Source: a virus
Length of the DNA stretch: 64,000 nt
Virus record (IMG/VR): IMGVR_UViG_3300025818_000017
Strand: one strand, 5' to 3'
Shown here: one piece after another, positions 13,056-34,302 of the stretch
Layout: each line of letters begins with the position of its first letter
How positions within the stretch are numbered: the stretch's first letter is position 1
Notes under the pieces: model-generated
The model's input: the letters and a program-made list of their open reading frames with translations, nothing else
What the model was told of the DNA's origin: nothing
Databases searched by the model: none
Translations under genes and position numbers: made by a program

Positions 13056-13296
13056 ACAAGAATTTTGGGATGCTTTGACTAAACCTACTGACTACCGTAA
13101 GACTTGTCGGTGGTGTAAGCATTATACTGGAAAGGTAAGGATACAAGGCGCGAAGCAAAAGTTCCATGCATTCGACAGACCAGCAACAAATAATGTTGCG
13201 TCAAATGGTAACTGCTCTTATCCTAACATTCATCCAGGGTTTTCTTGTATTATGGAAGGTCATAAATATTTTGAGTATGATGATACACGAACTTGA
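13036..13296 (+). CDS. Hypothetical protein with CxxC motif
   Basis: MEKPLSK..CRWCKHY; start re-called at 13036. Confidence 0.5.
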   Translation: MEKPLSKQEFWDALTKPTDYRKTCRWCKHYTGKVRIQGAKQKFHAFDRPATNNVASNGNCSYPNIHPGFSCIMEGHKYFEYDDTRT

Positions 13297-13975
13297 GGAA
13301 TACCCCGAAACCCTTTCCAGTATAAAATCTCTCGCAATCCTTGGTGTGGATCGTGGCGATATCATTGATACCTTTTCACAGTTCAGAAATCAATATGATA
13401 AACCGTATAACTACAAAATATATGCGGTGGACGATAAAAGCGGCATTATGGGAAAATACCGTAAGATAAAACGTGTTCAGTTTGTTGGTGTCGATTTTTA
13501 TAATGATTTGCATCTACCAGAACAGGTAGATTTCATTTATACAGAAAAGTTTGATTTAGCATATCGCCCATACGATATGGTGCGAAGTATAAACACTTGC
13601 CTAACGGATGGTGGAATATTTTGTTTTACTGCACAGAGTGGTATATCAAATGAATACAACAGAACAACCTCGTCGTTGAATGAAGGTTTATATAACTGGA
13701 CTATTCCCTCGCTGACGTATCTTCTAGCAACGAATGGATTTGAGTGTGTACACTTTAGAAAGCGTGGATCACTAATTGATGTGTTTGTATATAAGAAATG
13801 TGAACCATTGGATAACCCTACTTGGTATGATATACAAGAAAGAGGGTTACTAACTAAATCAATGAGTGAAAATGTGTTGAAATATGGTTATCTAACTGAT
13901 AACGATTTGGTTATTACCTGGATTGATGGGCATAACAGTTTAGTGTCTGCGTTTCTTCCAAAGACGCATCGCTAA
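13277..13975 (+). CDS. Class I SAM-dependent methyltransferase-like protein
   Basis: LAILGVD, VDFIY, CLTDGGIFCF pattern; start re-called at MMIHEL. Confidence 0.5.
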   Translation: MMIHELEEYPETLSSIKSLAILGVDRGDIIDTFSQFRNQYDKPYNYKIYAVDDKSGIMGKYRKIKRVQFVGVDFYNDLHLPEQVDFIYTEKFDLAYRPYDMVRSINTCLTDGGIFCFTAQSGISNEYNRTTSSLNEGLYNWTIPSLTYLLATNGFECVHFRKRGSLIDVFVYKKCEPLDNPTWYDIQERGLLTKSMSENVLKYGYLTDNDLVITWIDGHNSLVSAFLPKTHR

Positions 13976-14010
13976 CCATTTCCAATAACAAGCCTTATTT
14001 TACGGCGTTT

Positions 14011-14601
14011 TTACCACTTTCTACAACTCCAATAGCCAGCAGTTGTTTTGTCTTTTTTCTGATCACAGTTGTGTCTAGCACGGAAACTCTTACGGCGTTC
14101 TGGGTTATTTTTCTTGATTTTTACACCCTTCTGTCCGAAGTTGACCTTCTTTACATTGCCTGTCTTTGGGTCTTTTACATATACTTTGAACTTTTTCACA
14201 TCGCCAGCCATAGGCTTGTTTAGTTTTACTTTGCGACCTTGGTATTCAGCTTCCATAACATCTGTATCATAACCACTTTCTGCTAAGTGTGCTAAAACTG
14301 CTTCTTCTAGGCTTTCGTTTTTAGAACCTTTTTTACGGCAAGAACCTTTGCTGTATGCTTTCTTTCCAGGTACTGGTTCGTAACCATCCCAGCATCGACC
14401 TTCTTCTACTTTATCACCCCAAATCCATCCGTTGCCGTCGCATGTATCGCATTCTGCTTCGGTTGGATCGCCATCATAATGACCAGTTCCGTCACAATCA
14501 TAGCAAGTTATTTTTTCGTCTTCATCAAGTTCAATAACACTTTCATATACTTCTTCTTCAATGCGGTCAATGTTCTCTAAAAGTTTTCTAATATCACTCA
14601 T
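14011..14601 (-). CDS. Modular probable head protein: SDIRKLL leader, CxxCxGxG zinc finger, CWDGY module, DUF6321-like basic C-terminus
   Basis: CYDCDGTG..CDTCDGNG; CWDGYEPVPGKKAYSKGSC; KKVNFG..NPERRKSFRARHNC..TTAGYWSCRKW; SD AAGGA. Confidence 0.65.
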   Translation of the reverse strand: MSDIRKLLENIDRIEEEVYESVIELDEDEKITCYDCDGTGHYDGDPTEAECDTCDGNGWIWGDKVEEGRCWDGYEPVPGKKAYSKGSCRKKGSKNESLEEAVLAHLAESGYDTDVMEAEYQGRKVKLNKPMAGDVKKFKVYVKDPKTGNVKKVNFGQKGVKIKKNNPERRKSFRARHNCDQKKDKTTAGYWSCRKW

Positions 14602-15446
14602 ATATTTTCCTTTAATCTTTCCCAAACAATACCAGATGATATTTCATCAATGGTCCATTCGGTATAACTTATAGTATTTATCCAATCTTCACGATTTGGG
14701 TATACTGGGTCTTCTATTCTGTCCAGATTATCCAGCCCAAGCCCGACATCATAAGCAAGAGAATGAGGACTGACGAATACGGGTACGCCCGACATAACAG
14801 CAGTAATAGCAGGACCAGAGCTATGATTGACCACTGCCCAACATTTCGCCAATGCTGTTTCAAAATCGAAATCATCATATGTCCCTTCAATCTGTCGTGG
14901 TTTTGCGATAAGAACATTAGAAAACTCTTTTACATAGTCTGGGCTAACTGGAAACCTTGGATGTGGGCGAAGAATGATTCTTCTCTTACTATGCGCCCGT
15001 ATCTTACGGCATATACTTAGCATCCATTGGTCCATTGGCATCATACCTTTCCACTGTTCCGAAAGACCATGCTGACCGCATACAATAATATGTTCGCCAT
15101 CTTTTTTCCACGGTTTTAACGAAAGGTTATGGCGTGTTTCGCCATATGGTTCTATCCATGTTGCATCGCGGTTTATACCACCGATGCCTACTTTCCAAGT
15201 TTCATTTCTTTTTAGTGCCCCTACCTCAAGGACAATGACTGGCTTATTTTGTTCTTTATGTACATTCCAAATATATTGGTTATGTTTCATACGACCTGAC
15301 CATAGGACAGACCAAATAACAGCAATATCCCCGCCAATAGAGTCTACGATGAGATCGTAACCATCTCGCCGCAGTGCTTCCATAAACGCTTCCATTACAG
15401 GGCGTCCGGCCAAACTACAGAACTCAGGAAATACAGATATTTTCAT
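14598..15446 (-). CDS. KpsS/KpsC-like GT-B glycosyltransferase paralogue 2
   Basis: LRPHPR, VVNHSSGPAITAVMSGVP, YPNREDWI..SYTEW..EI..G; TATAAATA 5 nt before the ATG. Confidence 0.6.
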   Translation of the reverse strand: MKISVFPEFCSLAGRPVMEAFMEALRRDGYDLIVDSIGGDIAVIWSVLWSGRMKHNQYIWNVHKEQNKPVIVLEVGALKRNETWKVGIGGINRDATWIEPYGETRHNLSLKPWKKDGEHIIVCGQHGLSEQWKGMMPMDQWMLSICRKIRAHSKRRIILRPHPRFPVSPDYVKEFSNVLIAKPRQIEGTYDDFDFETALAKCWAVVNHSSGPAITAVMSGVPVFVSPHSLAYDVGLGLDNLDRIEDPVYPNREDWINTISYTEWTIDEISSGIVWERLKENI

Positions 15447-15450
15447 ATCG

Positions 15451-16080
15451 TTATTTATAATCGCCCCACGCAATATCTTCCGCAAAATGATTTGCTATGA
15501 AATCTCTGGTAGTTTTAGTGTGAAAGCTATCATATTCACTGTGATTAGAATTAACATTCAGGGGCTGTGGTAGTTTTACTGTATGACCGATTAACTCAGA
15601 AATAGTCTTATCGTTTAGCTCTTCAAACTTCAATAGTTTCTTGTTAGAACACCCTTCAAACCATTTCAGTTGTGGAAGTTTAGTTAGATACTTGTCGGCA
15701 CAATGTTGGGTATTCAATAACCAAGCCTCAAACCCTTGGGCAAGTAAAGCACTATCTTCTGGTGTATTATATTTCTGCTTCGTCTTTCTCAACCTATGCT
15801 TATATAGGGAAACCATTCTATCCCACGGATTTCTAATCAACCCGAAAAACACCATATCTTTTTTATATCGGATATTGAGTGTATCAAATGTTTCTATTAC
15901 TTGTTCATAGGTGTAATGATTGTCCGACCAACCATTTCTTGGAAGGTTATTCTCGTCTCTTACTTTCTGAACCTGTATAATATCTGCGACATTATTATAC
16001 ACAACTGTCGTAATACTTACGCCAGCAGTCTTGGGAACGTGGATAAAACACTTATTTTCGGTCAAAGAATAATGCGCCAT
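15451..16080 (-). CDS. Sulfotransferase family 2-like protein
   Basis: 5'-PSB-like FIHVPKTAG.SI and 3'-PB-like IRNPWDRMVSLY. Confidence 0.8.
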   Translation of the reverse strand: MAHYSLTENKCFIHVPKTAGVSITTVVYNNVADIIQVQKVRDENNLPRNGWSDNHYTYEQVIETFDTLNIRYKKDMVFFGLIRNPWDRMVSLYKHRLRKTKQKYNTPEDSALLAQGFEAWLLNTQHCADKYLTKLPQLKWFEGCSNKKLLKFEELNDKTISELIGHTVKLPQPLNVNSNHSEYDSFHTKTTRDFIANHFAEDIAWGDYK

Positions 16081-16836
16081 TTATTTTCCTACAAACAAGA
16101 AATCCCCATCATGTAAATGATGTAGTTTATCTACGGCATTCACACCACCAACAATACCAGCAACTTCTATCATTCTATTCTGTTCGCAATCGTAGTAATA
16201 GCATTTGAAATCACGCTGCATGAACCAGATGAAATAGTTATCAACGCCGTTCCCCGTCTTTTCTGCCCACGGTTTATAAATCTCTACCATAACATTTGGA
16301 CGCTCGTTTTCAATAAGGTTCTTTGCACCATATACCACATCCATTTCAAAACCTTCTACATCAATCTTGATAAACCCAACATCCTTATGTCCTTCACCAT
16401 CAAGGGAAACCATTGGAACCTTTCTTTCTTCTGACTCTACCAATGGAACTTGGCTAGTCATACTCAACCGACGAGTATCAATAAAGAGTGTGAGTTCACC
16501 TTCGTCTTTACTGACAGCAGCGTTACGAAAATCAACATTAGTCAAACCAAACTGACCGATGTTTTGTTTTTGAACTTCGTGTAGTTCTTTTACTGGTTCA
16601 TATGTAACAACATTCTTGGCGTGTTCGGCAAAGTATCGGCAATGGTAACCGCTATTACCACCAACATCAATAACTGTTTTATTTGGGTCAATATATTTGT
16701 CTAACTCTTTTAGGATGGAACTGGTGGTCAAACGGTTCCATAACTTTTCACGCCATCCACGCCTTTTCAAACTCTTTTCGCTAATCATTATTACCTCATC
16801 AAAATCTGTAGATTTACTCTGTTCTTTGTTTTGCAT
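16081..16836 (-). CDS. FkbM-family methyltransferase
   Basis: VIDVGGNSG, YEP, NAAVS, IKIDVEGFE.DV..GA, VMVE. Confidence 0.88.
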   Translation of the reverse strand: MQNKEQSKSTDFDEVIMISEKSLKRRGWREKLWNRLTTSSILKELDKYIDPNKTVIDVGGNSGYHCRYFAEHAKNVVTYEPVKELHEVQKQNIGQFGLTNVDFRNAAVSKDEGELTLFIDTRRLSMTSQVPLVESEERKVPMVSLDGEGHKDVGFIKIDVEGFEMDVVYGAKNLIENERPNVMVEIYKPWAEKTGNGVDNYFIWFMQRDFKCYYYDCEQNRMIEVAGIVGGVNAVDKLHHLHDGDFLFVGK

Positions 16837-17873
16837 AACCCGCCACGATGGAATGTTTGTGTTGGGTCAAATATAATACAATCTGCTTTATCACTAGTCC
16901 AAGGATATAACAAACTCAATAGTTTGTCACTCATCGGTGTTCCATCCAAAATGTATCTACCGATAATCACATTCTTGCGAAACTCTCTTGGAAAGAAACG
17001 CATGACACGACGAGCGGTAGGCGTGTCCAAATAGTTACCTGTGCTATTTCCGCAAGCAACCATTCTTTCCAACTGATCGTATTGCCAGCGATTGGATGTC
17101 GGGATGGTTGTAAATGGTCCCGTATCCTCATCCACCTCATTTAGATATAGAATGCTTTTCATTAGATTATACTTTGGGTCCATATGTAATGAGATCAACT
17201 TGGATGTGGTTTTCATATCCCGTAGGGTCATATAGTGATGTGTATCGGTGGGCGTGGCAACGTGTAGGGCAATCGTGTTTAAATCCATATTGCCTTCCAT
17301 GCGGTTATATTTGCTGATTGCTTGGAATACTTGGTTCTCGTCAAAATAAGCACGAACTAACCTAAACAACTCAGGATTATTTTCTTCATTATACACTTTG
17401 AAACGGTCATAGGCGTGTGCGGCAGCAGTATGGTCATCAACATTAGATAGTTGGGCAATCTCTTTACTGAGTAGGTCGTTCATTTGATTGGTTAGTTCTT
17501 TATTACCGTGGAAGCCAGCACACCCATCTCTATCAAGTGTTTTGTAGAACTCTGTTTCTGGTAAATCATTTCGTTCCACTTGCCTCTCGCAAGACTCAAA
17601 CCATAACCTAACAGAATTCTCAATGTATTTGTTCTGACCTGCTAAAATAGCCTTCTCTTCATCGTTGAAGTTAGCATACTTAGAAATCTCTTGTACCATA
17701 TTGGACCAAGCGGCTTTGAAAGCTGGAAACTTGCGACTGTCAAATGTCTTACGGATATTCGCTACATGGTCAAAGTTGATTTCTCTTGGGTATAGACTAT
17801 CACCAGCGCCTGGAAAGTCGCATAGGTCGGGTAGCTCTAAACCGTGGTCTGTAATCATATCGTCTCTAATCAT
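16791..17873 (-). CDS. 2OG-Fe(II)/PhyH-like dioxygenase
   Basis: LHMD (HxD), ILYLNEVDEDTGPF, IIFD..TFHRGG..R. Confidence 0.65.
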   Translation of the reverse strand: MIRDDMITDHGLELPDLCDFPGAGDSLYPREINFDHVANIRKTFDSRKFPAFKAAWSNMVQEISKYANFNDEEKAILAGQNKYIENSVRLWFESCERQVERNDLPETEFYKTLDRDGCAGFHGNKELTNQMNDLLSKEIAQLSNVDDHTAAAHAYDRFKVYNEENNPELFRLVRAYFDENQVFQAISKYNRMEGNMDLNTIALHVATPTDTHHYMTLRDMKTTSKLISLHMDPKYNLMKSILYLNEVDEDTGPFTTIPTSNRWQYDQLERMVACGNSTGNYLDTPTARRVMRFFPREFRKNVIIGRYILDGTPMSDKLLSLLYPWTSDKADCIIFDPTQTFHRGGLCKTKNRVNLQILMR

Positions 17874-18379
17874 TTCACTGCCTTCACGTGTAGATTTTTC
17901 TTAGAAGATTTCACCTGTTCAACATTACGAAACCCGTGTTTTTCAAGTGTGTCCTTCAATAATGGATAATCGTACCCTGTTTTATGAATATCCCAAATCT
18001 CTTGCTTTTCTGTTTCACGTTGCCATCCCCAGAAGCCAGCCAATGCCCATTCTTCATCGGTCATACCATTATTATTCATTGTTGTTTTGCGATCTGGGTT
18101 CATCCATTGCTGAATATGGAAAAGCATATCAGGGACAATCATTTCCATAACGCCATTCGGTTGAAGAACAGTTTTCCAAGCATTTAGCGTCCAAGTTGCT
18201 TGGGCAAAAGTAAGATGCTCAAAGAAATGTCGTGAGTAGATTGCTTCTACTGTTTGTGGTTCAACATACTTGTCTATTTCCCAAGCATTACATACATACT
18301 TCACATGCTTGAACTGACGAACATCAACACCTACATATCCTTTTGTAATCTTTGGTCCACAACCGAACTCAAGTTTCAT
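17870..18379 (-). CDS. SAM-dependent methyltransferase (type 11-like)
   Basis: KLEFGCG, GVDV, IYSRHFFEHL, LQPNG.MEMIVPD. Confidence 0.85.
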   Translation of the reverse strand: MKLEFGCGPKITKGYVGVDVRQFKHVKYVCNAWEIDKYVEPQTVEAIYSRHFFEHLTFAQATWTLNAWKTVLQPNGVMEMIVPDMLFHIQQWMNPDRKTTMNNNGMTDEEWALAGFWGWQRETEKQEIWDIHKTGYDYPLLKDTLEKHGFRNVEQVKSSKKNLHVKAVK

Positions 18380-19299
18380 TCTTCTTCTTTTTCCTTGTTG
18401 AATACGTTGTTATGTAAGTGTTTCCACGTTAAACCTTCACGCATTTCTTCTGGTGTCCATTGTGAATATGCAAGATTGTTCAATACATTTGTTCTGTCGG
18501 GTTTCGGTGGGTCATTGATATCTTCGATGCTGTGTCCTGATATTGGATAAACCATACTACCAGGATGCATAGCGATATGCGGGACGCCAGCCAGAACAGC
18601 GTCAATACCAGAACCGCTAGTGTATGTAACCATACAATGAGCATTCGCTAGGTCTTCTTCGAGTGTAGCTCCTTGTGAAATCATAATACGATCTTCATTG
18701 AAAAAGCGCCTTACATCCATATGCTTGGGCCAACGTTTTTCATCAGTCAACGGATGTAATCTAATCTTAATTTTCTTATCAGTCTTCTCCAAGATTTCTT
18801 CCAGAATGTTATTTGTCCACGTGTAATAGTCAAGACCAAACAAGCTTGCGTCATTCAAGAGTTGAAGGCCGAGTAATACATAATCACCTCCATCATTCCA
18901 AGGTTTGACTGTTAGACCTAGTTCATCAAATCTATCACTTGGGCAGTCATCACGCCAACCAAAGTCTCCTTCGTGTAACATAAAATGATCTACGCCGACA
19001 CGCCAATGACTATTTTTGGCTGGATGCGCTATTCTACCGAGCAGACAAGATTCCAAAAATATAACTGTTCCATTGTGGTATTTGAGAACTTCTTTCTTGA
19101 ACATATGATAATCTTTGGCATCCTTCTCTTCACGGCAACTACCAAAAATTACTGCGATATCTGACTTCTTATAAATAAAAGTGGGATCAAAAATAGGTAA
19201 GTAACCGTCGAACAGTTTTATACCTCTATAGAAATTATGCATAATTCTGGAATATTTTGAACGACCACCAGACGAGCCATATATGATTACTTTTTTCAT
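18376..19299 (-). CDS. KpsS/KpsC-like GT-B glycosyltransferase paralogue 3
   Basis: LLGLQLLND, IRLHPL, VTYTSGSGIDAVLAGVP, PDRT..NNLAYSQWT.EEM..G; start MKK at 19299, 5 nt after TAAATA. Confidence 0.62.
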   Translation of the reverse strand: MKKVIIYGSSGGRSKYSRIMHNFYRGIKLFDGYLPIFDPTFIYKKSDIAVIFGSCREEKDAKDYHMFKKEVLKYHNGTVIFLESCLLGRIAHPAKNSHWRVGVDHFMLHEGDFGWRDDCPSDRFDELGLTVKPWNDGGDYVLLGLQLLNDASLFGLDYYTWTNNILEEILEKTDKKIKIRLHPLTDEKRWPKHMDVRRFFNEDRIMISQGATLEEDLANAHCMVTYTSGSGIDAVLAGVPHIAMHPGSMVYPISGHSIEDINDPPKPDRTNVLNNLAYSQWTPEEMREGLTWKHLHNNVFNKEKEEE

Positions 19300-19323
19300 A
19301 AACATATTTATAAGGATTTTATA

Positions 19324-20130
19324 GTGGATACAGAAATAAAGAGAGTTCTAGATAAGGACAGAAAATATCAAAACCTAAAACGCCGTAAAGATAACTTAGT
19401 CAATGCGTTGCGGAACCCCCCAAACGAAGAGCAAAGAAGAGCGTGGGATGTAGAGTTAGCTACAGTAACCAAAGAGCATGATATTAGATTTTATAAACTT
19501 GGCGGTGGTCTTGGGAAAGGACCAAATAAAGCATTCTGTGATTTCCTTTCACGCCGTCTAAACAAGTTCAAGCCGCGATACCTAAAACTACTGGATACCG
19601 TGAAGGAGGTAAAGCCGCAAACCATTGTTGAAATCGGCACTTGGAAAGGTAAAACTGGTAAGGCACTTATCAACGAAGCACTACGCTACCAGAACCATGT
19701 TTCATATGTAGGTTATGACTTATTTGAGGACGCTACTAACACAAACGACCAAGAAGAATGGAATGGTAAAGCAGAATGTACCCTAAAAGAAACCGCCCGT
19801 GGCTTTGAGATTATGAAGCAAGGATGCGACCTAAACTTTGATTATAGATTGGTTCAAGGCAATACACTGGAAGTATTAGAAGACCACGCAGTAGATTTTG
19901 TTTGGCTTGACGGTGGGCATAGTATTGAAACTATCCGTAGTGACTTTGACCATGTAAAGAACTCCAAACTTGTAGTATTTGATGATTATTATGTCCCAGA
20001 GAAATACCCAGACCCGATTGATATTACCCAAGTTGGATGTAACGCTTTGGTAGCCGAACTTGATAATGTAGAAATATTTGTTCCTGATGGCGATTATGTT
20101 GGTATTGCTATTTGGAGAGGCAATCTATGA
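19324..20130 (+). CDS. SAM-dependent methyltransferase (Methyltransf_24-like) with helical N-terminus
   Basis: IVEIGTWKG, YVGYDLFE, FVWLDGGHS, VVFDDY. Confidence 0.8.
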   Translation: MDTEIKRVLDKDRKYQNLKRRKDNLVNALRNPPNEEQRRAWDVELATVTKEHDIRFYKLGGGLGKGPNKAFCDFLSRRLNKFKPRYLKLLDTVKEVKPQTIVEIGTWKGKTGKALINEALRYQNHVSYVGYDLFEDATNTNDQEEWNGKAECTLKETARGFEIMKQGCDLNFDYRLVQGNTLEVLEDHAVDFVWLDGGHSIETIRSDFDHVKNSKLVVFDDYYVPEKYPDPIDITQVGCNALVAELDNVEIFVPDGDYVGIAIWRGNL

Positions 20131-25915: not shown

Positions 25916-25922
25916 GTACGAT

Positions 25923-26144
25923 ATGGAAATTGAAACATTTAGAAATATACACACAATTACAGATACTCTAGAAAGCCGTTTCAGAGAATTTGATTATTGT
26001 ATACCGATGTGTTCCGACGAAGGATTTTTTCTTGAATTCGGTGTATGGAAAGCATTAAATGAGTGGATACAAGAGTGTGATAGAGAGGTGCAACCCTTAT
26101 GGCGAACCACTCAGTATTCAGCAGGGGTTAAAGTACTACGATGA
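25923..26144 (+). pseudogene. Probable internally deleted TylF-like methyltransferase remnant
   Basis: SAM motif I FLEFGVWK is followed at once by a C-terminal-like KALNEW segment; only 73 aa. Confidence 0.4.
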
Positions 26145-27669: not shown

Positions 27670-27698
27670 TTGACGTAACCATAAAAGAATGATATAAT
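27670..27698 (+). promoter_or_regulatory. sigma70-type promoter TTGACG-N17-TATAAT
   Basis: Near consensus with extended TG; ATG 27705 lies 6 nt after the -10. Confidence 0.75.
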
Positions 27699-27704
27699 CA
27701 CTGT

Positions 27705-28565
27705 ATGACCGAACTGAATATATATGTACCCAGAAACAAAGAAGACAGTAAATGCTGGCAAGTCTTCAATCCATTTATGTTGGGTTGGGATGATGAAACT
27801 CACGTTGAGTATGATTATGTTCAGCACGGCGGCATTAGTATGTTTTGGGGCTTGGTCGGTAAAAACTCAGAAATGATAAAGAAACACGAGGCTGAGTTCA
27901 GACCGTATCTCTTTTCGGATATGCCATACTTTGGTAGATGGTCTGGTCTAAAGGAAGCACTTGACCCCGATAGTGATTTCTATTGGCGCATATGTCCAAA
28001 CAGAATGCATTCACACTTTCAAAAAACTGAAGCACAAACACTTTCTTCCGATAGGTTTGATAGACACAATACCCCCATCAAAGAAAAGAAGAAAAGAGGG
28101 CACGAGATTATTCTGTGTCCAAGTTCAGAAAGCGTGACGAGACACCTATGTAACTGTAGCGTAGAAACTTGGATAAACGATACAACGGCAGCAATAAGAG
28201 AGTATACAGACCGTCCTATTCGTGTTCGTCATAAACCAAGACGAAACGGAACATCGGGACCAGCCGCCGCTCTTATCCCGTTTGCCGAAGATATAAAAGA
28301 TGCGTGGTGTGTGATAACTCTTATTAGTATGAGTGGTACGGAAGCATTACTAAATGGTGTCCCTATGATGGAGACAGAACATATAAACGGGTACAGTAAC
28401 TTTCGTTTTCAGCCCGATAAAATAGAAAGCGTAGAGTGGTCTGGGTATGGAACACAAGTTCTTATGAACTGGCTTGCCTACCAACAGTTCACACCAAAAG
28501 AAATGTATACAGGCGAAGCATTAGCAATCCTAAAAGAAACTAATCCATACTTCTTTAGCGAATGA
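27705..28565 (+). CDS. KpsS/KpsC-like GT-B glycosyltransferase paralogue 8
   Basis: SDMPYF, VRHKPR, ITLISMSGTEALLNGVP, WLAYQQFT..EM.TG. Confidence 0.58.
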   Translation: MTELNIYVPRNKEDSKCWQVFNPFMLGWDDETHVEYDYVQHGGISMFWGLVGKNSEMIKKHEAEFRPYLFSDMPYFGRWSGLKEALDPDSDFYWRICPNRMHSHFQKTEAQTLSSDRFDRHNTPIKEKKKRGHEIILCPSSESVTRHLCNCSVETWINDTTAAIREYTDRPIRVRHKPRRNGTSGPAAALIPFAEDIKDAWCVITLISMSGTEALLNGVPMMETEHINGYSNFRFQPDKIESVEWSGYGTQVLMNWLAYQQFTPKEMYTGEALAILKETNPYFFSE

Positions 28566-29304
28566 TATCTTTGTCGGGATCAAAGTCCCTACCAAATGTG
28601 GCTTTGAACTCATCAAACCATAAGTCTTTATAATCAACATCACTCTCGTATTGCTCACGCCATACCATCGGTCCCAAAGTATGGTGAATGTTGAATGGTA
28701 GCGTGTCTGGCTTATCGTATTCACCAGCAAGGAAGTTGAACTCTGTTGGAAGTCCACCAATCAGTTCATCCTTTACCCACATAAACCTGTGTAGAAACTT
28801 TGGTTCTGCTGTTTCAACGAGTTCTTTGGTGAGGTTGTGGTTTTCTGGATGGTCGCAATTATAGATAACGGTGCTTGACCAGTTTTTGCGTGGATATGTT
28901 GTCTGTGGCAATCCTCCCATCTTTGGATCGGCTTTTGGTTGATAATCGTGCTTCACACATTGGAGTGCTTTGGAAGGATCAAACAGATCAAACATTTCTT
29001 TGATATCACGGGTGATAATCATGTCACAGTCAAAGAAGATACCAACACCATTGTAATCCATTAAATGTGGAACCATAAAGCGTGTAATACTAAACTGCGT
29101 GGACCCACGTGGATCAATAGGACGAGTACATAGATCATATGCCAACAGTTCGTCACGAATGATTGGAACGATAACCAGATCATTCATTGTAGTCCTTGAG
29201 CGAATACTGTGTGCTAACATCTTGGCACAAGCATCTTCTGCTGGATCGTAACCTATGAATACTACTTGTTGTGCTTCTCTTGCGTCTTCTAGTCTGTTAA
29301 ACAT
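28555..29304 (-). CDS. GT-A glycosyltransferase (GT8/CDI-like)
   Basis: VFIGYD, STQFSITRF.VP, FFDCDM (DxD), YPRKNWSS, EFNFLAGEY, HHTLGP. Confidence 0.8.
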   Translation of the reverse strand: MFNRLEDAREAQQVVFIGYDPAEDACAKMLAHSIRSRTTMNDLVIVPIIRDELLAYDLCTRPIDPRGSTQFSITRFMVPHLMDYNGVGIFFDCDMIITRDIKEMFDLFDPSKALQCVKHDYQPKADPKMGGLPQTTYPRKNWSSTVIYNCDHPENHNLTKELVETAEPKFLHRFMWVKDELIGGLPTEFNFLAGEYDKPDTLPFNIHHTLGPMVWREQYESDVDYKDLWFDEFKATFGRDFDPDKDIIR

Positions 29305-29338: not shown

Positions 29339-29818
29339 ATGCGTGATGATATAGAAAATTGGATTCTCAATTTTGTAGAAGACCCAACCATTTGTCCTTA
29401 TGCAAAAAAAGCCAGACTTGATAATCAAATAAAAATAGTTGAAATAAAAGATTTATTAGAACTAATAGAACTGGCGGACACATTAGACGTTGATGTTTGC
29501 ATTGCCTATACAGATAAAGTATCGGTAAATGTGACCAGTGTTTTGCGAGATATAAACGCCGAGCTTATGAAAAGAAACTTGGTCGTGCTTGAAGACATAG
29601 CCCCGGAAATAATAAATGGGCGTGATATGAGTTTTGGTAAATGTCCATTGTTCTTCATTCAGAAATTGAGTTTCCTAAATGACAAAGCCCTAAAACTTAT
29701 TCATACTGGATACTATGACAACTGGACTATGGAAAATTTGGAAGATGTTGTATTATGGCGCTTCCATAATCCCGACGATTTTTTGAAAAGACTTAGACTT
29801 CGAATCCCGAATGCATAA
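29339..29818 (+). CDS. Hypothetical protein (weakly DUF1415-like)
   Basis: W..NFV..ICPYAK; TATAAATA 5 nt before ATG 29339. Confidence 0.5.
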   Translation: MRDDIENWILNFVEDPTICPYAKKARLDNQIKIVEIKDLLELIELADTLDVDVCIAYTDKVSVNVTSVLRDINAELMKRNLVVLEDIAPEIINGRDMSFGKCPLFFIQKLSFLNDKALKLIHTGYYDNWTMENLEDVVLWRFHNPDDFLKRLRLRIPNA

Positions 29819-30421: not shown

Positions 30422-30425
30422 ACAG

Positions 30426-30442
30426 TATTTACAATCTAAATA
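30426..30442. promoter_or_regulatory. Divergent late-type promoter pair (TATTTA-N5-TAAATA)
   Basis: Each TAAATA is 4 nt upstream of an ATG (30447 on +, 30421 on -). Confidence 0.72.
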
Positions 30443-30446
30443 TCAT

Positions 30447-31262
30447 ATGATTAAAATAAGAGACATTACTATTTCAAATGACCTACCGTTTACACTTATT
30501 GCTGGTCCTTGTGCTATGGAAAGCCGTGATCACGCATTGATGATGCAAACAGAAATAAAGAAAATCACAGATCGTCTTGGTATTCCATTCATCTTCAAAA
30601 CATCATTTGATAAAGCAAATAGAACATCTGTTGATAGTAAGCGCGGTGTTGGTCTTGGCGATGCGGTCCTAGTCTTTGAAGAGCTTAGTAAAAAGACATC
30701 TGTCCTCACTGATGTCCACGAACCTTACCAATGCGACATTTTAAAAGATGTCGTTGATGTCTTACAAATACCAGCGTTCCTATGTCGCCAAACAGACTTG
30801 TTGGTTGAAGCTGGTGATACTGGATTGGCTATCAACGTGAAGAAAGGTCAGTTTGTTGCGCCGGAAGATATGGTGAATGTGGTGAAGAAGATTGAAAGCA
30901 CAGGTAATAAGAACATTATGCTTACTGAACGTGGGACATTCTTTGGTTATGGAAATCTTGTCGTTGATTACAGAGGATTAGAGATAATGAAAGAAACTGG
31001 CTATCCAGTTTGTATGGATGCCACACACGCCGTGCAGAAACCATCTGGTCTTGGTGGTGTATCTGGTGGTGATAGAAAGTATGTGCCAGTTATGGCGAAG
31101 GCTGGATTGGTACAAGGTATTGGTGCGTTATTTGTTGAGACACACGATGACCCAGACAACGCATTCAGTGATGGTCCAAATATGATTCCATTGGATAAGC
31201 TGGAAGAATTTTTGAAGCATATGAAAGAAATAGACGAGGTAATAAAAAATGGAAGAAACTAA
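30447..31262 (+). CDS. kdsA: 3-deoxy-8-phosphooctulonate (Kdo-8-P) synthase
   Basis: AGPCAMES, KTSFDKANRTS, LTDVHE, QIPAFLCRQTDL, NVKKGQF, TERG, DATHAVQKP, FVETH..PDNA.SDGP. Confidence 0.97.
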   Translation: MIKIRDITISNDLPFTLIAGPCAMESRDHALMMQTEIKKITDRLGIPFIFKTSFDKANRTSVDSKRGVGLGDAVLVFEELSKKTSVLTDVHEPYQCDILKDVVDVLQIPAFLCRQTDLLVEAGDTGLAINVKKGQFVAPEDMVNVVKKIESTGNKNIMLTERGTFFGYGNLVVDYRGLEIMKETGYPVCMDATHAVQKPSGLGGVSGGDRKYVPVMAKAGLVQGIGALFVETHDDPDNAFSDGPNMIPLDKLEEFLKHMKEIDEVIKNGRN

Positions 31263-31455
31263 CGAAGTTATCGACGGCGTATCTGTCAGAACGTACCTGG
31301 ACGGCGGCGATATTATTGTTGAATATTCGTATGATGATAGAAATGCTCGCACTGTCATTGAGAAGAATACAAACGAAAGTATCAAGAAGTTCGATTACGA
31401 TTCATTAGAGCAAATGAAAACGCTGACTATACAAATTCTAAAGGAGAATAACTAA
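31249..31455 (+). CDS. Small hypothetical protein
   Basis: Translationally coupled ORF ending KENN. Confidence 0.6.
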   Translation: MEETNEVIDGVSVRTYLDGGDIIVEYSYDDRNARTVIEKNTNESIKKFDYDSLEQMKTLTIQILKENN

Positions 31456-31702
31456 TGGAAAAGATTGAGTTACCAGGCATTACAGATAATATCTACACAG
31501 AAAAAAGTCAATCAGGTAATGAAATAGTTACAACATTTTTTACAGAAGTTGATGGCGAGACAAAGAAGTTATCAGCAACATACACAACCGCTGTGGAATC
31601 CGATTTGCGTAATATAAGTATTGATGTTGAAAAAGAATTAATGTCTGTATTAGCAGCAGAAATTCAAGCAGAATTGAATATTATAAAGGAGAATAACTAA
31701 TG
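31440..31702 (+). repeat. 18-bp direct repeat AAAGGAGAATAACTAATG (31440-31457 and 31685-31702)
   Basis: Identical RBS/stop/start junctions flanking one small gene. Confidence 0.8.
31455..31700 (+). CDS. Small hypothetical protein
   Basis: SD AAGGAG, TAATG coupling, ends KENN. Confidence 0.65.
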   Translation: MEKIELPGITDNIYTEKSQSGNEIVTTFFTEVDGETKKLSATYTTAVESDLRNISIDVEKELMSVLAAEIQAELNIIKENN

Positions 31703-32041
31703 AAATCTGGTAAGGTATGGGGTCAAACAGAACCCCTATTACAAACTCCATTTGTGGAGTTTCACAGGATTGATATTAAGAAAGGTGGCTATTGTTCCCT
31801 TCATAAACATACATATAAGTATAACGCTTTTTACGTGGTTGAAGGCGAGCTAGAGATTGAGGTTCACAAGAATGATTATGACCTTGTTGATACGACATTA
31901 TTGAAAGCGGGTGATATGACTGTCTGTAAACCTGGTGAATATCATAAGTTCCACGCTCTAACAGATGTTGTATGTTTTGAGTTATATTATCCTGAACCGC
32001 TGAGTGAGGATATTCAACGAAAGAATGTTGGCGGAACCTAA
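31700..32041 (+). CDS. Cupin (sugar isomerase / MPI type-II-like)
   Basis: KVWG, GYCSLHKH..KYNAFYVVEG, LKAGD..PGEYHKF. Confidence 0.8.
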   Translation: MKSGKVWGQTEPLLQTPFVEFHRIDIKKGGYCSLHKHTYKYNAFYVVEGELEIEVHKNDYDLVDTTLLKAGDMTVCKPGEYHKFHALTDVVCFELYYPEPLSEDIQRKNVGGT

Positions 32042-32147
32042 ATTATTTACATAGACTTTGGTGCCGTTTGATATTATTTGCACCTATTTCTCTTTCGCAT
32101 ATATCACAAGTAACTTTCTTATATGTGATACCTTTGTTCCAAGGAGT

Positions 32148-32897
32148 ATGAAGATTTTGTATGACGTTTGTTGTGTCTGGGTAGGAGACAAGTATTCAAG
32201 AGAGTATGTTATCAATCTTTACAACGGCGTGAAGAAACATACAACCCTACCCTTTCGATTCAATGTTATCACAGACAAACCAGAGATAGCAAACGCAATC
32301 CCTTGTAGAACTATACCTATTCCTAAATGGCAAATCGATGGGGTAAATCTGCTGGATCATCGTAAGGCGTGGTGGTATAAAATGGCGATGTTCCGGCCAA
32401 ACAACGGCTTCGACAAGTATGTTATGTATTTTGATTTGGATATGATAATCATAAAGAACATAGATCATTTCTATACATATCACCCAAAGCAGTTCTGTAT
32501 TTTACAAGACTTTAACCGTCAATATATTCATGACTATCACGTTAGTAATAGTTCCATAATGCGATGGCAAACAAAGCGTTATTCACAATCTATCTGGGAA
32601 GCATTCACCAAAGACATTCCGTATAATGTAAATACCTTCCGTGGCGACCAAGACTTCATGACTTTTTATTTTAACACTCACAAGAAAAATAAAACTTGGT
32701 GGCCTCGTGAATGGGCAATGTCTTGGAAATGGGAACTTGAGAAAGGTGGCAAACGAAATAATGGCAATGATAGAAACTCTTATCACGAACCAGATAGGGA
32801 CTTTGTTTTGCCAGATGATTGTGCTATCGTGGTATGCCACGGTGACCCAAAACCACACGAAATACATAAGAAGATTATGGCTCATTGGAATAAATAA
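32148..32897 (+). CDS. GT-A glycosyltransferase
   Basis: CVWVGDKY..YV, WWYKM.MF, YFDLDM (DxD), NSSIM, GDQDF, CHGDPKPH; SD AAGGAG. Confidence 0.8.
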   Translation: MKILYDVCCVWVGDKYSREYVINLYNGVKKHTTLPFRFNVITDKPEIANAIPCRTIPIPKWQIDGVNLLDHRKAWWYKMAMFRPNNGFDKYVMYFDLDMIIIKNIDHFYTYHPKQFCILQDFNRQYIHDYHVSNSSIMRWQTKRYSQSIWEAFTKDIPYNVNTFRGDQDFMTFYFNTHKKNKTWWPREWAMSWKWELEKGGKRNNGNDRNSYHEPDRDFVLPDDCAIVVCHGDPKPHEIHKKIMAHWNK

Positions 32898-32919
32898 TAC
32901 TGTCAGAAAGGAATAAAAA

Positions 32920-33321
32920 ATGGCGAAATATACAATTGAATTAGACTTTTACCAAGATCAATACGGTGAGGAAAATGCCCTTGCTTCCGTGAAATTTGAT
33001 GGCGAAATGCAGACAGAAAGCTTTGAGGTATCATCAGCAGACATAAACACACCGAATACATTTGAGTTCGTAACTGACAAGCCAGATGGTGTTTACACTT
33101 TGGAAGTTAGGTTTTTGAATGACTCTTATGCCGACGAAGCAGGTGATAGGAACCTGAACTGGTGCAATACACGTATCAATGGAGTTGAAATTCCGTGGGA
33201 TTCTATGGATAGCGGTTCATTAACTTTTCCAAAAAGTGAAGATAGTGTATACATTGATACTTGGGAAGACTTTCAGATTCCATACGAAACATTTGCAAGA
33301 ACTGATATAAGTCTACCATAG
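32920..33321 (+). CDS. Small acidic protein with Ca-dependent carbohydrate-binding (CBM60-like) motif
   Basis: LEVRFLND..GDRNL motif; TAAATA at ~32891 and SD AAGGA. Confidence 0.5.
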   Translation: MAKYTIELDFYQDQYGEENALASVKFDGEMQTESFEVSSADINTPNTFEFVTDKPDGVYTLEVRFLNDSYADEAGDRNLNWCNTRINGVEIPWDSMDSGSLTFPKSEDSVYIDTWEDFQIPYETFARTDISLP

Positions 33322-34302
33322 TTCCAATAACTGTCTCCGTAGATTATCTATAAGAACATCCCCGAACTCATTAAAAAAGAAATCACGATTGTGATCAATC
33401 GTTTCACTACAAAAGTCTCTCAACTCATACATAGATTTGGGAGACATTTTTATTCCCATGAAGTTCCAGTTCTCTTCCAGTGCCTTTATCAATCTATTGT
33501 CGTACTCTAAGTTATCATATTCTTCGTTGAACATAAGCGAGAACGTCTTGAAACCATAATCCCGAACATCCTGTAATGCCCCTTGATGACCCACTATAAT
33601 AAACGGATGACCCGCAACTATTGCGTTGAATGTTTTTTCTGTTATTATTCCATACTTTTCGTAATACTGGCTTTCAGTGACGATGCTAAAGAAACTGGTA
33701 TTGAAGTTTTTCTTTAGGGTAAGAAAGTTCATTAGATTATCATAATGCTGGTCATATTCTCTGTATGTAAACCCTCTATACTTTAGCTCAACACCCGATT
33801 GTTGGTAACTAAGATTACCGTGGCAGTTTTTCAATGCTTCGTATGTAGCACGTCTATGGTGCTTGTCAATACGGTTCATACAGAGAAAGTTGTCTTCGTA
33901 ATCTTTGTGATTGAACTCTTCTCGTAATACATTTTCGGCTTGTTTATAGCTCTGCCATGTTTCATACTGATGGGGGCTGAACTCAACTACTTTGAAACTG
34001 CTTGTCTTGTTCCAATCATTACTCAACTGTCTGGGCCAAACCACCACGATAATCTGGTCCAAGTCTACACGGTCTTTGTAATAGTCATTGATACGCAGTA
34101 GTTCAGTTGGAAATATATCGTCGGGAGCCATCGTCAGTATATCTTGTAGAATGAGAACCAAGCGAAAATCTTTTTGGTGAAATCGGCAGTCATCCCAATC
34201 TGGAAACTCTATTTCCCACCCGTCTTTAGTGATTGGATATTTGAGGGCAGCATCCACGATATGACTATTGGGGAAAACTGCTCTAATCGTTTCCATAAAC
34301 AT
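33313..34302 (-). CDS. GT-like (exostosin/GT10-like C-terminus) protein, paralogue A
   Basis: FLCMNR..HR, FSIVTES, ITEKTF.AI..HPFI.VG, GFKTF..FNEEYD; true start 34302, 4 nt after TAAATA. Confidence 0.55.
   Translation of the reverse strand: MFMETIRAVFPNSHIVDAALKYPITKDGWEIEFPDWDDCRFHQKDFRLVLILQDILTMAPDDIFPTELLRINDYYKDRVDLDQIIVVVWPRQLSNDWNKTSSFKVVEFSPHQYETWQSYKQAENVLREEFNHKDYEDNFLCMNRIDKHHRRATYEALKNCHGNLSYQQSGVELKYRGFTYREYDQHYDNLMNFLTLKKNFNTSFFSIVTESQYYEKYGIITEKTFNAIVAGHPFIIVGHQGALQDVRDYGFKTFSLMFNEEYDNLEYDNRLIKALEENWNFMGIKMSPKSMYELRDFCSETIDHNRDFFFNEFGDVLIDNLRRQLLELW

Follow-up and report, generated by a model that had tools for sequence, protein, structure and literature searches.

A synthesis island for a decorated, probably Kdo-containing glycan in a T4-like jumbo phage

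Why does a phage carry about 30 sugar-handling genes side by side, what might they build, and on what? The island that raises this question spans 21 kb (13.1-34.3 kb) of the window, the 64,000-nucleotide stretch of viral DNA analyzed here, which belongs to a fragment (about 25% complete) of a T4-like jumbo-phage genome. The carrier of the island is a large freshwater phage. A preliminary description had proposed that these genes make and decorate a Kdo-containing glycan late in infection, for the virion or the host surface. Its gene inventory stands nearly item by item after profile, motif, and structure checks, and the observation itself, an island packed with such genes, is confirmed. Every gene tested is under purifying selection, with dN/dS of 0.03-0.26, and the same genomic site holds variant islands in relatives.

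Gene content of the island

The predicted decoration enzymes are as follows. Here and below, several ORF starts were shifted to the ATG downstream of a TAAATA motif.

13166-13975 (+): methyltransferase-like candidate at the left island edge, 269 aa; one N-terminal membrane helix, class-I methyltransferase-like motifs
15451-16080 (-): sulfotransferase (Sulfotransfer_2); Pfam 35.8 bits (cut-off 22)
16081-16836 (-): FkbM-family SAM methyltransferase; Pfam 61 bits, TIGR01444 90.6 bits
16791-17873 (-): PhyH-type Fe(II)/2-oxoglutarate dioxygenase; invariant HxD...H and R
17870-18379 (-): small methyltransferase-like protein (weak); phrog_6636 at 1e-4, Pfam below cut-off
19324-20130 (+): Methyltransf_24 methyltransferase; Pfam 33.6 bits (cut-off 26.3)
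22879-23454 (-): methyltransferase-like protein (weak); Pfam below cut-off; TAAATA-N5-ATG
24436-25260 (+): polysaccharide pyruvyl transferase; Pfam 26.8 bits (cut-off 25.3); own TAAATA-N5-ATG
26141-26680 (+): Methyltransf_24/TylF-like O-methyltransferase; Pfam 43.1 bits (cut-off 26.3)

The sulfotransferase and pyruvyltransferase claimed earlier exceed their Pfam cut-offs, and the dioxygenase is supported by its conserved residues and by its AlphaFold model (pLDDT 92.5), whose top Foldseek matches are all Fe/2OG dioxygenases (MysH, SnoN, AviO1, EctD, and KanJ; E about 1e-6). While six or more methyltransferases had been counted, three (16081, 19324, and 26141) are above cut-off and three (17870, 22879, and 13166) are weak or motif-only, the last giving no match in Pfam, PHROG, and NCBIfam searches. 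The 17870-18379 gene is conserved in L033 and L034, and 19324-20130 is paired with the next gene, 20127-20966, also in L033 and L035.

A second set comprises predicted glycosyltransferases and a carbohydrate-binding protein.

20127-20966 (+): GT-A-like protein, invariant DAD; Atlas features NDP-sugar transferase 0.96
25253-25915 (+): GT29-like (sialyltransferase-family) protein; Pfam 39 bits (cut-off 23)
28555-29304 (-): GT8-like GT-A, DCD motif; TAAATA 30 nt upstream; Atlas GT8-like 0.98
32148-32897 (+): GT8-like GT-A, invariant DLD; phrog_1962 at 1e-20, weak GT8 match to 3tzt
32920-33321 (+): CBM60-like carbohydrate-binding protein; Pfam 35 bits (cut-off 28.2); TAAATA 24 nt upstream
33313-34302 (-): GT10-like TEK/HP motif protein at the right island edge, 329 aa; TAAATA-N4-ATG
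54883-55854 (-): paralogue of 33313-34302, not far from a tail-spike-like gene; TAAATA-N4-ATG

A sialyl-motif-L-like match to ST6Gal1 adds to the Pfam evidence for the GT29-like gene, and candidates were found for all three DxD GT-A genes described. The motif is aligned in 28555-29304 (phrog_28018 at 2e-39) and in 20127-20966, for which a PDB profile search gave no match. Homologues of 28555-29304 adjoin KdsA in the giant-virus MAG L016, and those of 32148-32897 come after KdsA in L002-L005. The gene at 33313-34302, described as GT-like, shows only the GT10-like motif; Pfam and PDB profile searches with it gave no match. A 636-aa ORF at 33313-35223 was rejected as a gene, being an over-extension.

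The remaining genes, apart from the family described below, include the one for Kdo synthesis.

14011-14625 (-): zinc-ribbon/DUF5754-like protein, 204 aa; last gene of a predicted late unit
29339-29818 (+): 159-aa protein; TAAATA-N5-ATG; phrog_28122 at 6e-12, called as a gene on L023
29753-30421 (-): 222-aa protein; TAAATA-N4-ATG; only a weak ATE_C hint
30447-31262 (+): KdsA (Kdo-8-phosphate synthase); opens a predicted late unit, TAAATA-N4-ATG
31249-31700 (+): two small ORFs, 68 and 81 aa
31700-32041 (+): Cupin_2 protein; Pfam 41.7 bits

The first of these has weak Pfam matches to DUF5754 and Anti-TRAP and matches phrog_7595 at 7e-18; the second small ORF matches part of the Pfam Gp23 profile. 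KdsA is genuine, scoring above both NCBIfam equivalog cut-offs (NF003543, 390 bits against 242; TIGR01362, 369 bits against 314). By its distribution it is an accessory cassette, absent from the otherwise kept islands of relatives L029 and L034 and lying within the replication module in L001/L007. KdsB and KdsD, which it was proposed to seek elsewhere in the genome, are not encoded in the 90 kb examined, and neither is an APS kinase. The cupin and CBM-like claims hold at the scores listed. Weak WbuC-cupin and mannose-6-phosphate isomerase hints make the cupin a candidate sugar(-phosphate) isomerase or epimerase; it is linked to KdsA in several phages, and the two are adjacent also in L031 and L028. 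By hydropathy and sequence, the island encodes no multi-pass membrane protein. It has no polymerase, and an initiating phosphoglycosyl transferase, ligase, flippase, or ABC exporter was found neither in the island nor in the 90 kb.

Promoters of the island

Late expression had been proposed from TAAATA promoters. Each of the 22 TAAATA-N4-6-ATG sites in the window opens an ORF of at least 76 aa, while about 0.1 occurrences of TAAATA-N4-6 before a start codon are expected by chance. The motif stands directly before the terminase gene and virion genes recognized by PHROG and, with a leader, before further virion genes and a tail chaperone gene. Since it also directly heads nine island genes (and two more with a leader), late timing of most island units is supported, the late class of these promoters being suggested by this association. 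TAAATA control does not extend to the whole island, however, because one paralogue has the following promoter.

27670-27698 (+): sigma70-type promoter; TTGACG, 17-nt spacer, TG-TATAAT; 6 nt separate it from the ATG of 27705

This site, with 11 of 12 consensus positions, is the sole strong one of its type in the island. No recognizable promoter was found for the unit 19324-21982 or, after 26141, for 26659.

The Kdo-transferase fold and its active sites

All-against-all BLASTP and a profile search of the contig identified eight paralogues of one GT-B family, seven of them inside the island, as had been counted.

2654-3583 (-): QxxxG + HR; the one copy not in the island, transcribed divergently from the terminase gene; TAAATA-N5-ATG
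14598-15446 (-): QxxxS + HP type; own TAAATA-N5-ATG at 15446
18376-19299 (-): canonical QxxxD + HP; heads a predicted five-gene late unit, TAAATA-N5-ATG at 19299
20963-21982 (+): QxxxG + HP type; Pfam Capsule_synth 25.4 bits (cut-off 20)
21972-22862 (-): CPPT + KP type (Gln and His both absent); dN/dS 0.07
23517-24431 (+): canonical QxxxD + HP; TAAATA-N4-ATG
26659-27669 (+): QxxxG + HP type; dN/dS 0.16 against L026
27705-28565 (+): CPSSxxVTxH + KP type; dN/dS 0.11; sigma70-type promoter upstream

Orthologues of 14598-15446 occur in L029 and L034 (59-60%), 20963-21982 has a dN/dS of 0.03 against L028, and 23517-24431 falls slightly under the Capsule_synth cut-off at 18.1 bits. The expected GT-B fold was seen in the AlphaFold model of 18376-19299 (pLDDT 93.7), whose top 20 Foldseek matches are exclusively the retaining beta-Kdo transferases KrkA, KpsC, or WbbB. 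In VIA-align, KpsC gave a Z of 15.1 (rmsd 3.7, 240 aligned), WbbB 13.2, and KrkA 12.7; unrelated GT-B rows followed with Z of at most 11.5, those covering the whole model having rmsd of at least 7. The local signature Q-x-x-N-D-x-S equals QTFNDMS around the nucleophile Asp160 of KpsC. Much of the island belongs to a large branch, unnamed and rich in phage members, of the Kdo-transferase fold known from bacterial capsule synthesis. At the sequence level the family matched only Pfam Capsule_synth and TIGR04396 (surface carbohydrate biosynthesis). In fused relatives, TPR is combined with GT-D or GT25 domains, as in polysaccharide-building enzymes.

The HP motif is nearly invariant across the family, but the QxxxD plus HP pair is intact in only two of the eight paralogues, 18376-19299 and 23517-24431. 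Because the other six, with four other active-site types, lack the Asp nucleophile or the HP His, the name KpsS/KpsC-like Kdo transferase, given earlier to all, is arguable only for those two copies.

What the island may build, and on what

The island probably makes a Kdo-containing decorated glycan: the link to CMP-Kdo transferases is backed by the fold, the motifs, and recurrent neighborhoods shared with KdsA and, in one case, with KdsB. That a late-expressed island of a jumbo T4-like phage builds this glycan on a virion component is, taken whole, our tentative explanation. The island would be a late-expressed cytoplasmic assembly line in which KdsA would raise Kdo-8-phosphate supply, while arabinose-5-phosphate, dephosphorylation, and activation with CMP would come from the host or the rest of the genome. 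The two canonical paralogues would add beta-Kdo from CMP-Kdo via a covalent Asp-Kdo intermediate, like KpsC, WbbB, and KrkA; the GT29-like enzyme might add another CMP-activated ulosonic acid, the three GT8-like/GT-A enzymes neutral NDP-sugars, and the other six paralogues would elongate the chain, perhaps with other donors or mechanisms. Methyltransferases, sulfotransferase, pyruvyltransferase, and PhyH-type dioxygenase would then decorate the chain, and the acceptor would be a phage-made virion component, yielding an acidic glycan coat. Against this explanation count 1) the six altered active sites, the KdsA-less islands of L029 and L034, and the missing KdsB, KdsD, and APS kinase, and 2) the sigma70-type promoter and the two units with no recognizable one.

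A virion acceptor appears most likely because most island genes seem to share their transcription with the terminase and virion genes and because a flippase, polymerase, and exporter are lacking. It is also favored by the extra copies that lie amid late structural genes, namely 2654-3583 next to the terminase gene and 54883-55854 close to the tail-spike-like gene. Less likely, the enzymes modify host lipid-linked intermediates (lipid A-core, undecaprenyl-linked O-antigen, or the lyso-PG Kdo linker) at the cytoplasmic face, and host exporters carry altered LPS or capsule outward; masked receptors would then spare progeny from loss on debris or block superinfection, and masking before lysis also fits late expression. 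Since the known beta-Kdo transferases need no membrane helices of their own to work at the inner membrane on acceptors linked to lipid, the missing export genes are compatible with host glycolipids. Bacterial polysaccharides are typically capped with sulfate, pyruvate ketal, and O-methyl groups; the two sequence-level matches point the same way, and the fused relatives resemble O-antigen or capsule polymerases. The characterized relatives of the fold, KpsC, KpsS, WbbB, and KrkA, all have lipid-linked glycans of the bacterial surface as their substrates (PMC10148158, PMC9587256, PMC12887879), and cyanophage genes for cell-wall synthesis or modification, including kdsA and kdsB, have been read as host-envelope remodeling (PMC12801897). 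However, initiation, ligation, and export genes are lacking, at least 13 transferases are a very large outlay for a lytic phage shortly before lysis, and gene copies sit among structural genes.

Whatever the target, it is rather improbable that Kdo is marginal, with most, perhaps all, eight paralogues using a different CMP-ulosonic acid or, for the KP-type copies, a donor that carries no CMP, and with a movable KdsA topping up host LPS precursors. Besides the six altered copies and the absence or other placement of KdsA in relatives, this would fit the absence of the Asp from half of the family members sampled, among which QxxxG and QxxxS are common, and the recurrence of the CPPT + KP and CPSSxxVTxH + KP types in the distant Pelagibacter phage Mosig (CPSS signature in Mosig_185). 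Moreover, five KdsA-bearing viral contigs have no family member, and CMP-sialic-acid transferases share the HP motif (PMC10148158). Yet the two canonical copies closely match the Kdo-transferase signature, KdsA is the sole ulosonic-acid synthase found (no NeuB), and KdsA, once KdsB, lies less than 10 kb from family members in independent phages. Distant phages repeat a module of KdsA, cupin, GT8-like GT-A, and Kdo-transferase-fold genes (as in L031), once with KdsB; one unrelated phage contig combines family members with KdsA, a KdsB-type cytidylyltransferase, sulfotransferase, FkbM, and a dioxygenase homologue.

Late timing had been held to argue against DNA modification, which is a weak argument because post-replicative glycosylation could be late too and because both a phage glycosyltransferase attaching what was assigned as Kdo to 5hmC of DNA and DNA glycans with as many as three sugars have been reported (bioRxiv 10.1101/2023.12.21.572611; PMC13326640). 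Even so, and although the phage is T4-like and the island has methyltransferases, a 2OG dioxygenase, and glycosyltransferases, it is very unlikely that these glycosylate a modified pyrimidine, Kdo included, as in T4, RB69/DLP3, or metagenomic 5hmC-glycan clusters: the PhyH-type dioxygenase best matches small-molecule/sugar-modifying enzymes rather than TET/JBP, the methyltransferases belong to FkbM/TylF-like O-methyltransferase families, the reported Kdo-DNA enzyme is T4-beta-GT-like rather than of the KpsC fold (bioRxiv 10.1101/2023.12.21.572611), at least 13 glycosyltransferases plus sulfation and pyruvylation go far beyond any known DNA glycan, the locus includes a CBM-like protein, and the 90 kb hold no Tet_JBP, C5 DNA methyltransferase, or thymidylate-synthase homologue, which is weak evidence because the genome is incomplete.

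Phage-encoded virion glycosylation is described for mycobacteriophages (Freeman 2023, as cited in PMC11256854). Caulobacter phage CcrColossus has the same set of genes directly after the tail protein gene and before the lysis genes, an order that, by analogy, may speak for a virion target here.

The GT-B paralogue family and its active sites

The preliminary description had counted eight KpsS/KpsC-like GT-B genes. Exactly eight paralogues of one family emerged from all-against-all BLASTP and from profile searching of the contig, seven in the island of sugar-handling genes (14598, 18376, 20963, 21972, 23517, 26659, and 27705; genes are named by start coordinate) and one, 2654, beside the terminase gene. 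The Pfam Capsule_synth model (PF05159, gathering cut-off 20 bits) scored 25.4 bits on 20963, 19.9 on 18376, and 18.1 on 23457 (the copy at 23517) and had no hit in the other five paralogues. A profile of all eight gave chance matches only among PDB sequences, with no solved member reached significantly. Since sequence profiles reach no solved structure, a fold search was needed. We modelled one paralogue, 18376-19305, from an alignment of 63 relatives (AlphaFold-type model, pLDDT 93.7), the other copies being tied to it by sequence. The 20 best Foldseek matches in the PDB were all KrkA (GT140), KpsC (GT107), or WbbB (GT99). Using VIA-align, the model scored Z 15.1 against KpsC (rmsd 3.7, 240 residues), 13.2 against WbbB, and 12.7 against KrkA, while unrelated GT-B enzymes reached at most 11.5, those spanning the whole model with an rmsd of at least 7. 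The model (18376-19299) thus has the modified GT-B architecture of KpsC, WbbB, and KrkA.

The family extends well beyond this phage. A profile search of 1.84 billion representatives returned 5,775 relatives at E ≤1e-3 and 1,219 at ≤1e-30, and the predicted structures in the ESM Atlas that are nearest to the 18376 model are viral clusters, mostly unnamed. In fused relatives, bacterial or viral, the fold is joined to TPR and GT-D domains or to GT25 domains. A locus search with a single paralogue as query found one distant locus.

Retaining β-Kdo transferases are defined by an invariant QXXXD motif, the Asp of which forms a covalent Kdo adduct, together with an HP motif, the His of which protonates the CMP phosphate, and a Glu that is the base (PMC10148158, PMC9587256, and PMC12887879). 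In KpsC, WbbB, and KrkA, intact-mass spectrometry showed this adduct as +220 Da. The family consensus is Q-x-x-x-D-x-S plus H-P, and the modelled copy reads Q-L-L-N-D-A-S where KpsC reads Q-T-F-N-D-M-S. The assignment of the paralogues to KpsS/KpsC-like Kdo transferases is arguable for 18376 and 23517, which have both QxxxD and HP, but not for the other six, which do not have both. The Asp is replaced by Gly in 20963, 2654, and 26659 and by Ser in 14598, and neither the Gln nor the His is present in 21972 and 27705, which are of types CPPT/KP and CPSSxxVTxH/KP, respectively. The second motif is HP in five copies, HR in 2654, and KP in 21972 and 27705. We nevertheless found that these six copies are not decaying, because their dN/dS against orthologues is 0.03-0.16, because the odd signatures CPSSxxVTxH with KP and CPPT with K are repeated in the Pelagibacter phage Mosig, and because a conserved acidic column at position 85 (E in 40/63 family sequences), a candidate counterpart of the N-terminal-domain general base Glu66 in KpsC, covaries with the nucleophile position, the Asp type being paired with Glu and the Gly type with Asp across the 63-sequence alignment. 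On the strength of these motifs, we read the family as five active-site types on one fold, of which the QxxxD plus HP type alone is probably a retaining Kdo transferase.

Other island enzymes and the proposed supply of Kdo

Scores above the Pfam gathering thresholds bore out the genes proposed earlier as Sulfotransfer_2, FkbM, polysaccharide pyruvyl transferase, GT29-like, Cupin_2, and CBM60-like. The GT29-like protein belongs to its family by PF00777 (39 bits, cut-off 23), with two stretches covering the S/VS end, and its L-motif region aligns weakly to ST6Gal1. For the six or more methyltransferases reported, FkbM and two Methyltransf_24/TylF-like proteins stand above cut-off, while 17870, 22879, and 13166 are weak or motif-only. 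The 2OG dioxygenase is 16791-17873, with H230, D232, and H342 (HxD...H) and R352 invariant across its family. Its AlphaFold model (pLDDT 92.5) matches MysH, SnoN, AviO1, and EctD in Foldseek (E ~5e-7). These matches are to Fe/2OG dioxygenases of the PhyH superfamily, where SnoN, AviO1, and KanJ (E ~1e-6) act on sugar moieties, and 16791-17873 has the features of an Fe(II)/2OG enzyme of this superfamily, with a Pfam PhyH match at E 0.11 only.

The three DxD GT-A genes were also found:

Candidate GT-A glycosyltransferase genes of the island
32148-32897: invariant DLD, phrog_1962, weak GT8 match
28555-29304: DCD, GT8-like in the ESM Atlas at 0.98
20127-20966: invariant DAD, NDP-sugar transferase in the ESM Atlas at 0.96

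For the last of these, we rejected as evidence an Atlas structural match of 20112-20966 to an MptE-like (Maf-type) cluster, which spans 256 residues of a 764-aa multidomain protein with a row TM of 0.32; the invariant DAD motif of the phage protein itself points to GT-A. The "GT-like" gene 33313-34302 shows a GT10-like TEK/HP motif by eye and has no Pfam or PDB profile hit. A 636-aa minus-strand ORF at 33313-35223 is an over-extension in the ORF listing, the real gene being 33313-34302 with its start ATG at 34302 behind a TAAATA. PDB profile searches with the alignments of the GT-A, dioxygenase, and GT10-motif families (A4, A6, and A5) gave nothing meaningful. Each island protein has one membrane helix at most, and exporters, flippases, and initiating transferases are absent from the set.

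The gene at 30447-31262 is a genuine KdsA, scoring 389.8 bits with NF003543 (cut-off 242) and 369 with TIGR01362 (cut-off 314), which makes it a KdsA equivalog, while DAHP synthase models score far under their own cut-offs. It is the only ulosonic-acid synthase seen in the 90-kb record, and KdsB, SIS/KdsD, APS kinase, and NeuB were not found in this record (~25% of the genome). The cupin 31700-32041 offers weak WbuC-cupin and mannose-6-phosphate isomerase hints only, and that it replaces KdsD is a guess. In two related viral loci (L001:3051-3854 and L007:1497-2300), KdsA is found outside the glycan island, in the replication module, where homologues of 39668-40216 and 40481-40951 flank it, which indicates that it travels as a cassette of one gene. 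The paralogue family has no member on five further viral contigs with KdsA, all of them fragments. Four contigs of giant-virus MAGs (L013, L016, L017, and L018) encode KdsA at 42-45% identity, and such MAGs have homologues of 28555-29304 (40%) and 20112-20966 no more than a few kb from KdsA, so glycan genes are common to different virus realms.

Promoters, source record, and variant islands

T4-type late promoters have a TATAAATA-like −10 element and no −35 element and precede late (structural) genes. The full octamer is not enriched (7 found vs 7.2 expected). All 22 occurrences of TAAATA-N4-6-ATG in the window, which lie between 2398 and 62906, open ORFs of 76-522 aa, with these examples:

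Examples of TAAATA-N4-6-ATG
3596-3609
30437-30449
55854-55866

When the hexamer was permuted, an ATG bias was seen in overlapping shifts of TAAATA only (e.g., TATAAA, 3/10). The motif corrected the ORF starts 3583, 15446, 19299, 23517, 24436, and 34302, and its distance from the ATG suggests that late mRNAs are leaderless or nearly so. TAAATA directly heads the terminase gene and the PHROG virion genes 42788 and 48540, and precedes, with a longer leader, the tail chaperone gene 48003 and two more virion genes, 5216 and 52830. In replication genes, the ATG follows a Shine-Dalgarno leader or, at a distance of 6-7 nt, a TTGACA/TATAAT promoter. In the island, where most transcription units had previously been noted to start at TAAATA, the motif directly heads 15446(-), 19299(-), 23454(-), 23517(+), 24436(+), 29339(+), 30421(-), 30447(+), and 34302(-), with a leader in addition before 29304(-) and 32920(+). 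A single strong σ70-type promoter in the island stands upstream of 27705. The promoter motifs therefore argue for an island that is mostly late but not for one that is all late, as 27705 has a σ70-type promoter. No RNA run with this phage's sequence is listed among public runs. Sites of the TTGACx/TATAAT type occur at 12320-12354, 27670-27704, 38030-38058, and 44740-44769, 6-7 nt before the ATG of 12355, 27705, 38059, and 44770, and resemble promoters of the early class that share the leaderless geometry of the late motif.

The window comes from a linear IMG/VR phage record of 90,574 bp, of which it covers bases 2948-66947. Since the completeness of the record is ~25% (CheckV), the genome would be of jumbo size. 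T4-like replication and packaging genes include terminase, gp32-type SSB, UvsX, DnaB-like and other helicases, and ribonucleotide reductase. Freshwater metagenomes of several studies contain near-identical DNA, and the island is present in two other assemblies (L023 and L024) at 99.5-100% protein identity; it is therefore not an assembly artefact. Megablast with the island gave no match among GenBank phages.

In relatives, variant islands fill the corresponding site, which is flanked by homologues of 12355/12618 and 35240, with protein identities of 70-90% in one contig (L028) and 50-65% in two others (L029 and L034). The following units form the shared core:

Core units shared by variant islands
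GT14598, sulfotransferase, FkbM, dioxygenase, small methyltransferase, GT18376
Methyltransf_24, GT-A, GT20963
each by itself: GT21972; GT27705; GT8-like 28555; GT10-motif gene
cupin, GT8-like 32148, CBM60-like

The segment of GT23517, pyruvyltransferase, GT29-like gene, MT26141, and GT26659 is variable among relatives, as is KdsA. At this fixed site the island differs from one close relative to another, in the manner of surface-antigen loci. In an unrelated 43-kb phage contig, KdsA adjoins a KdsB-type cytidylyltransferase, and a family member, a sulfotransferase, FkbM, and a dioxygenase homologue lie within 6 kb of this pair. Among further unrelated phages, L031 combines KdsA, cupin, GT8-like, and GT-A genes with two family members, and L033 and L035 have several family members with the same methyltransferase and GT-A partners. 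Phage Mosig has, among genes 183-191, a reduced set of two methyltransferases, GT-A, GT8-like, two family members, sulfotransferase, and a second GT8-like gene. That of CcrColossus, among gp126-gp131 and between a tail protein gene and the lysis cassette, comprises a sialyltransferase-like gene, two family members, an NDP-sugar transferase, and a GT9 gene; a TROVE-like gene (L037, 107047-108456) lies near this small cluster.

Several further features were seen around the islands. Just right of the island, a radical SAM gene and a DUF6071 homologue (Pfam mark on L029) at 36370-38038 are kept in relatives, with the late motif heading the radical SAM gene and a weak AAA_16 gene (35240-36283) preceding it. 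An ORF at 34390-34788 (+), the homologue of which in L023 is marked LPD29, occupies a GC-richer stretch together with 34858-35160 (+). At L029:15689-18481, a 290-aa TnsA-like endonuclease ORF interrupts the homologue of helicase 38059-39519, leaving separate ResIII and Helicase_C halves; this ORF could represent a homing element or an insertion of the intein type. Tiny ORFs matching part of the Pfam Gp23 model (or Portal_T4) adjoin the paralogue family in three different phages and could be remnants or small structural-protein-like peptides:

Tiny ORFs with Gp23 or Portal_T4 matches
31455-31700, in the window
L033:1309-1743
L029:9539-9676

Candidate acceptors and comparison with known systems

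In the pathway that we propose, KdsA would raise Kdo-8-P, and CMP-Kdo would be supplied by host KdsB or by a gene beyond the 90-kb record. Copies with canonical QxxxD and HP would add β-Kdo by double displacement, the GT29-like enzyme would add a CMP-ulosonic acid, and the GT8-like enzymes neutral sugars. The chain might then be decorated by O-methylation, sulfation, pyruvate ketal formation, and an oxidative step.

Where the glycan would sit had been left between virion and host envelope. Tentatively, we favor a phage-made acceptor, that is, a virion coat, because the island is predicted to be co-expressed with virion genes, extra copies of the family lie among structural genes, and CcrColossus shows the arrangement described. 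A serious competitor, if a somewhat doubtful one, is that the enzymes remodel lipid-linked glycans of the host: the characterized relatives of the fold all act on lipid-linked acceptors and have no membrane helices of their own, and late receptor masking would make sense. Whatever the target, it is unlikely that Kdo is only a minor ingredient of the glycan. Glycosylation of DNA by the island enzymes is highly improbable: phage DNA hypermodification clusters (5hmC or 5hoC plus GTs) likewise group GTs with methyltransferase and dioxygenase genes, and a Kdo adduct on phage DNA has precedent there (bioRxiv 10.1101/2023.12.21.572611), but these clusters rest on a C5-methyltransferase plus TET-like, or a thymidylate-synthase-like, activation and on T4-β-GT-like transferases, none of which was found here (PF12851, PF00145, and PF00303, the base-activating functions, are unmatched in the 90-kb record, about three quarters of the genome lying outside it), and the dioxygenase is PhyH-type, the wrong class. 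Returning to the virion coat, it is conceivable, although we would not count on it, that the family together with KdsA, GT29-like, and GT8-like enzymes builds a sulfated, pyruvylated, methylated, Kdo-rich coat on jumbo-phage virions, as part of a phage-dominated radiation of the fold. If so, the phage particle would wear a bacterial-capsule-like glycocalyx, diversified between close relatives like an O-antigen locus. The role of such an acidic capsule-like glycan is directly testable at the bench, since reduced versions exist in cultured CcrColossus-type Caulobacter phages and in Mosig.

Glycosylation of phage virions and sets of phage glycan genes are already known. To our knowledge, retaining β-Kdo transferases are limited to three small bacterial CAZy families, which make capsule linkers, O-antigen caps, and the K13 capsule. 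Here the fold recurs in a very large family whose members are for the most part viral and for the most part annotated as "hypothetical." The family has multiplied within single phage genomes and split into active-site types, widening the catalytic range of the fold and marking many "hypothetical" phage proteins as glycan-building enzymes. In the literature, we found no description of a phage radiation of this fold, of its multiplication within one genome, of its conserved non-canonical active sites, or of its packaging with sulfation, pyruvylation, and GT29-like chemistry in a late hypervariable island. From the literature examined, the island is the largest and most decorated phage glycan locus that can be documented.

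The phage proteins share the modified GT-B fold of KpsC/KpsS (GT107) and of the N-domains of WbbB (GT99) and KrkA (GT140), and resemble β-Kdo transferases in the QxxxD nucleophile and HP of two copies, in borderline Capsule_synth scores, and in the genomic company of KdsA/KdsB. Unlike KpsC, WbbB, and KrkA, they are phage-encoded single modules of ~300 aa, without coiled-coil or second GT modules, in eight copies, six with QxxxG, QxxxS, CPPT/KP, or CPSSxxVTxH/KP. In Mimivirus fibrils, glycosylation is virus-encoded by clade-specific, variable glycogene clusters (PMC9614988). According to PMC11256854, citing Freeman 2023, cytoplasmic GTs of mycobacteriophages (Che8 and others) decorate virion proteins. 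Those phages use one to three GTs and neutral sugars, whereas glycosylation of a virion protein by the island enzymes is a proposal.

Viral Kdo genes are already known in CroV and Fadolivirus, where, as in the island, a Kdo-8-P synthase lies within a large cluster of GTs and sugar methyltransferases (38 kb in CroV) (PMC9614988), and, since 2025, in one cyanophage (PMC12801897). CroV has the whole Kdo pathway (isomerase, phosphatase, and cytidylyltransferase), whereas KdsA alone is seen in our record, and expansion of a Kdo-GT fold is not described for CroV; unlike the CroV host, the host here is a bacterium already making Kdo. The T4-like cyanophages S-SCSM2R, S-SCSM1, and P-SSM2 exceed 200 kb and have many GTs; S-SCSM2R has kdsA and kdsB, and its 13 GTs have been described as possibly the largest number for a marine phage (PMC12801897). 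The S-SCSM2R KdsA is 43% identical to that of the island. Reports on these phages mention neither a paralogue family nor a late-promoter architecture nor a sulfation/pyruvylation set. Unlike those of the island, their cell-wall genes are dispersed, and they have been read as host-surface modification (PMC12801897).
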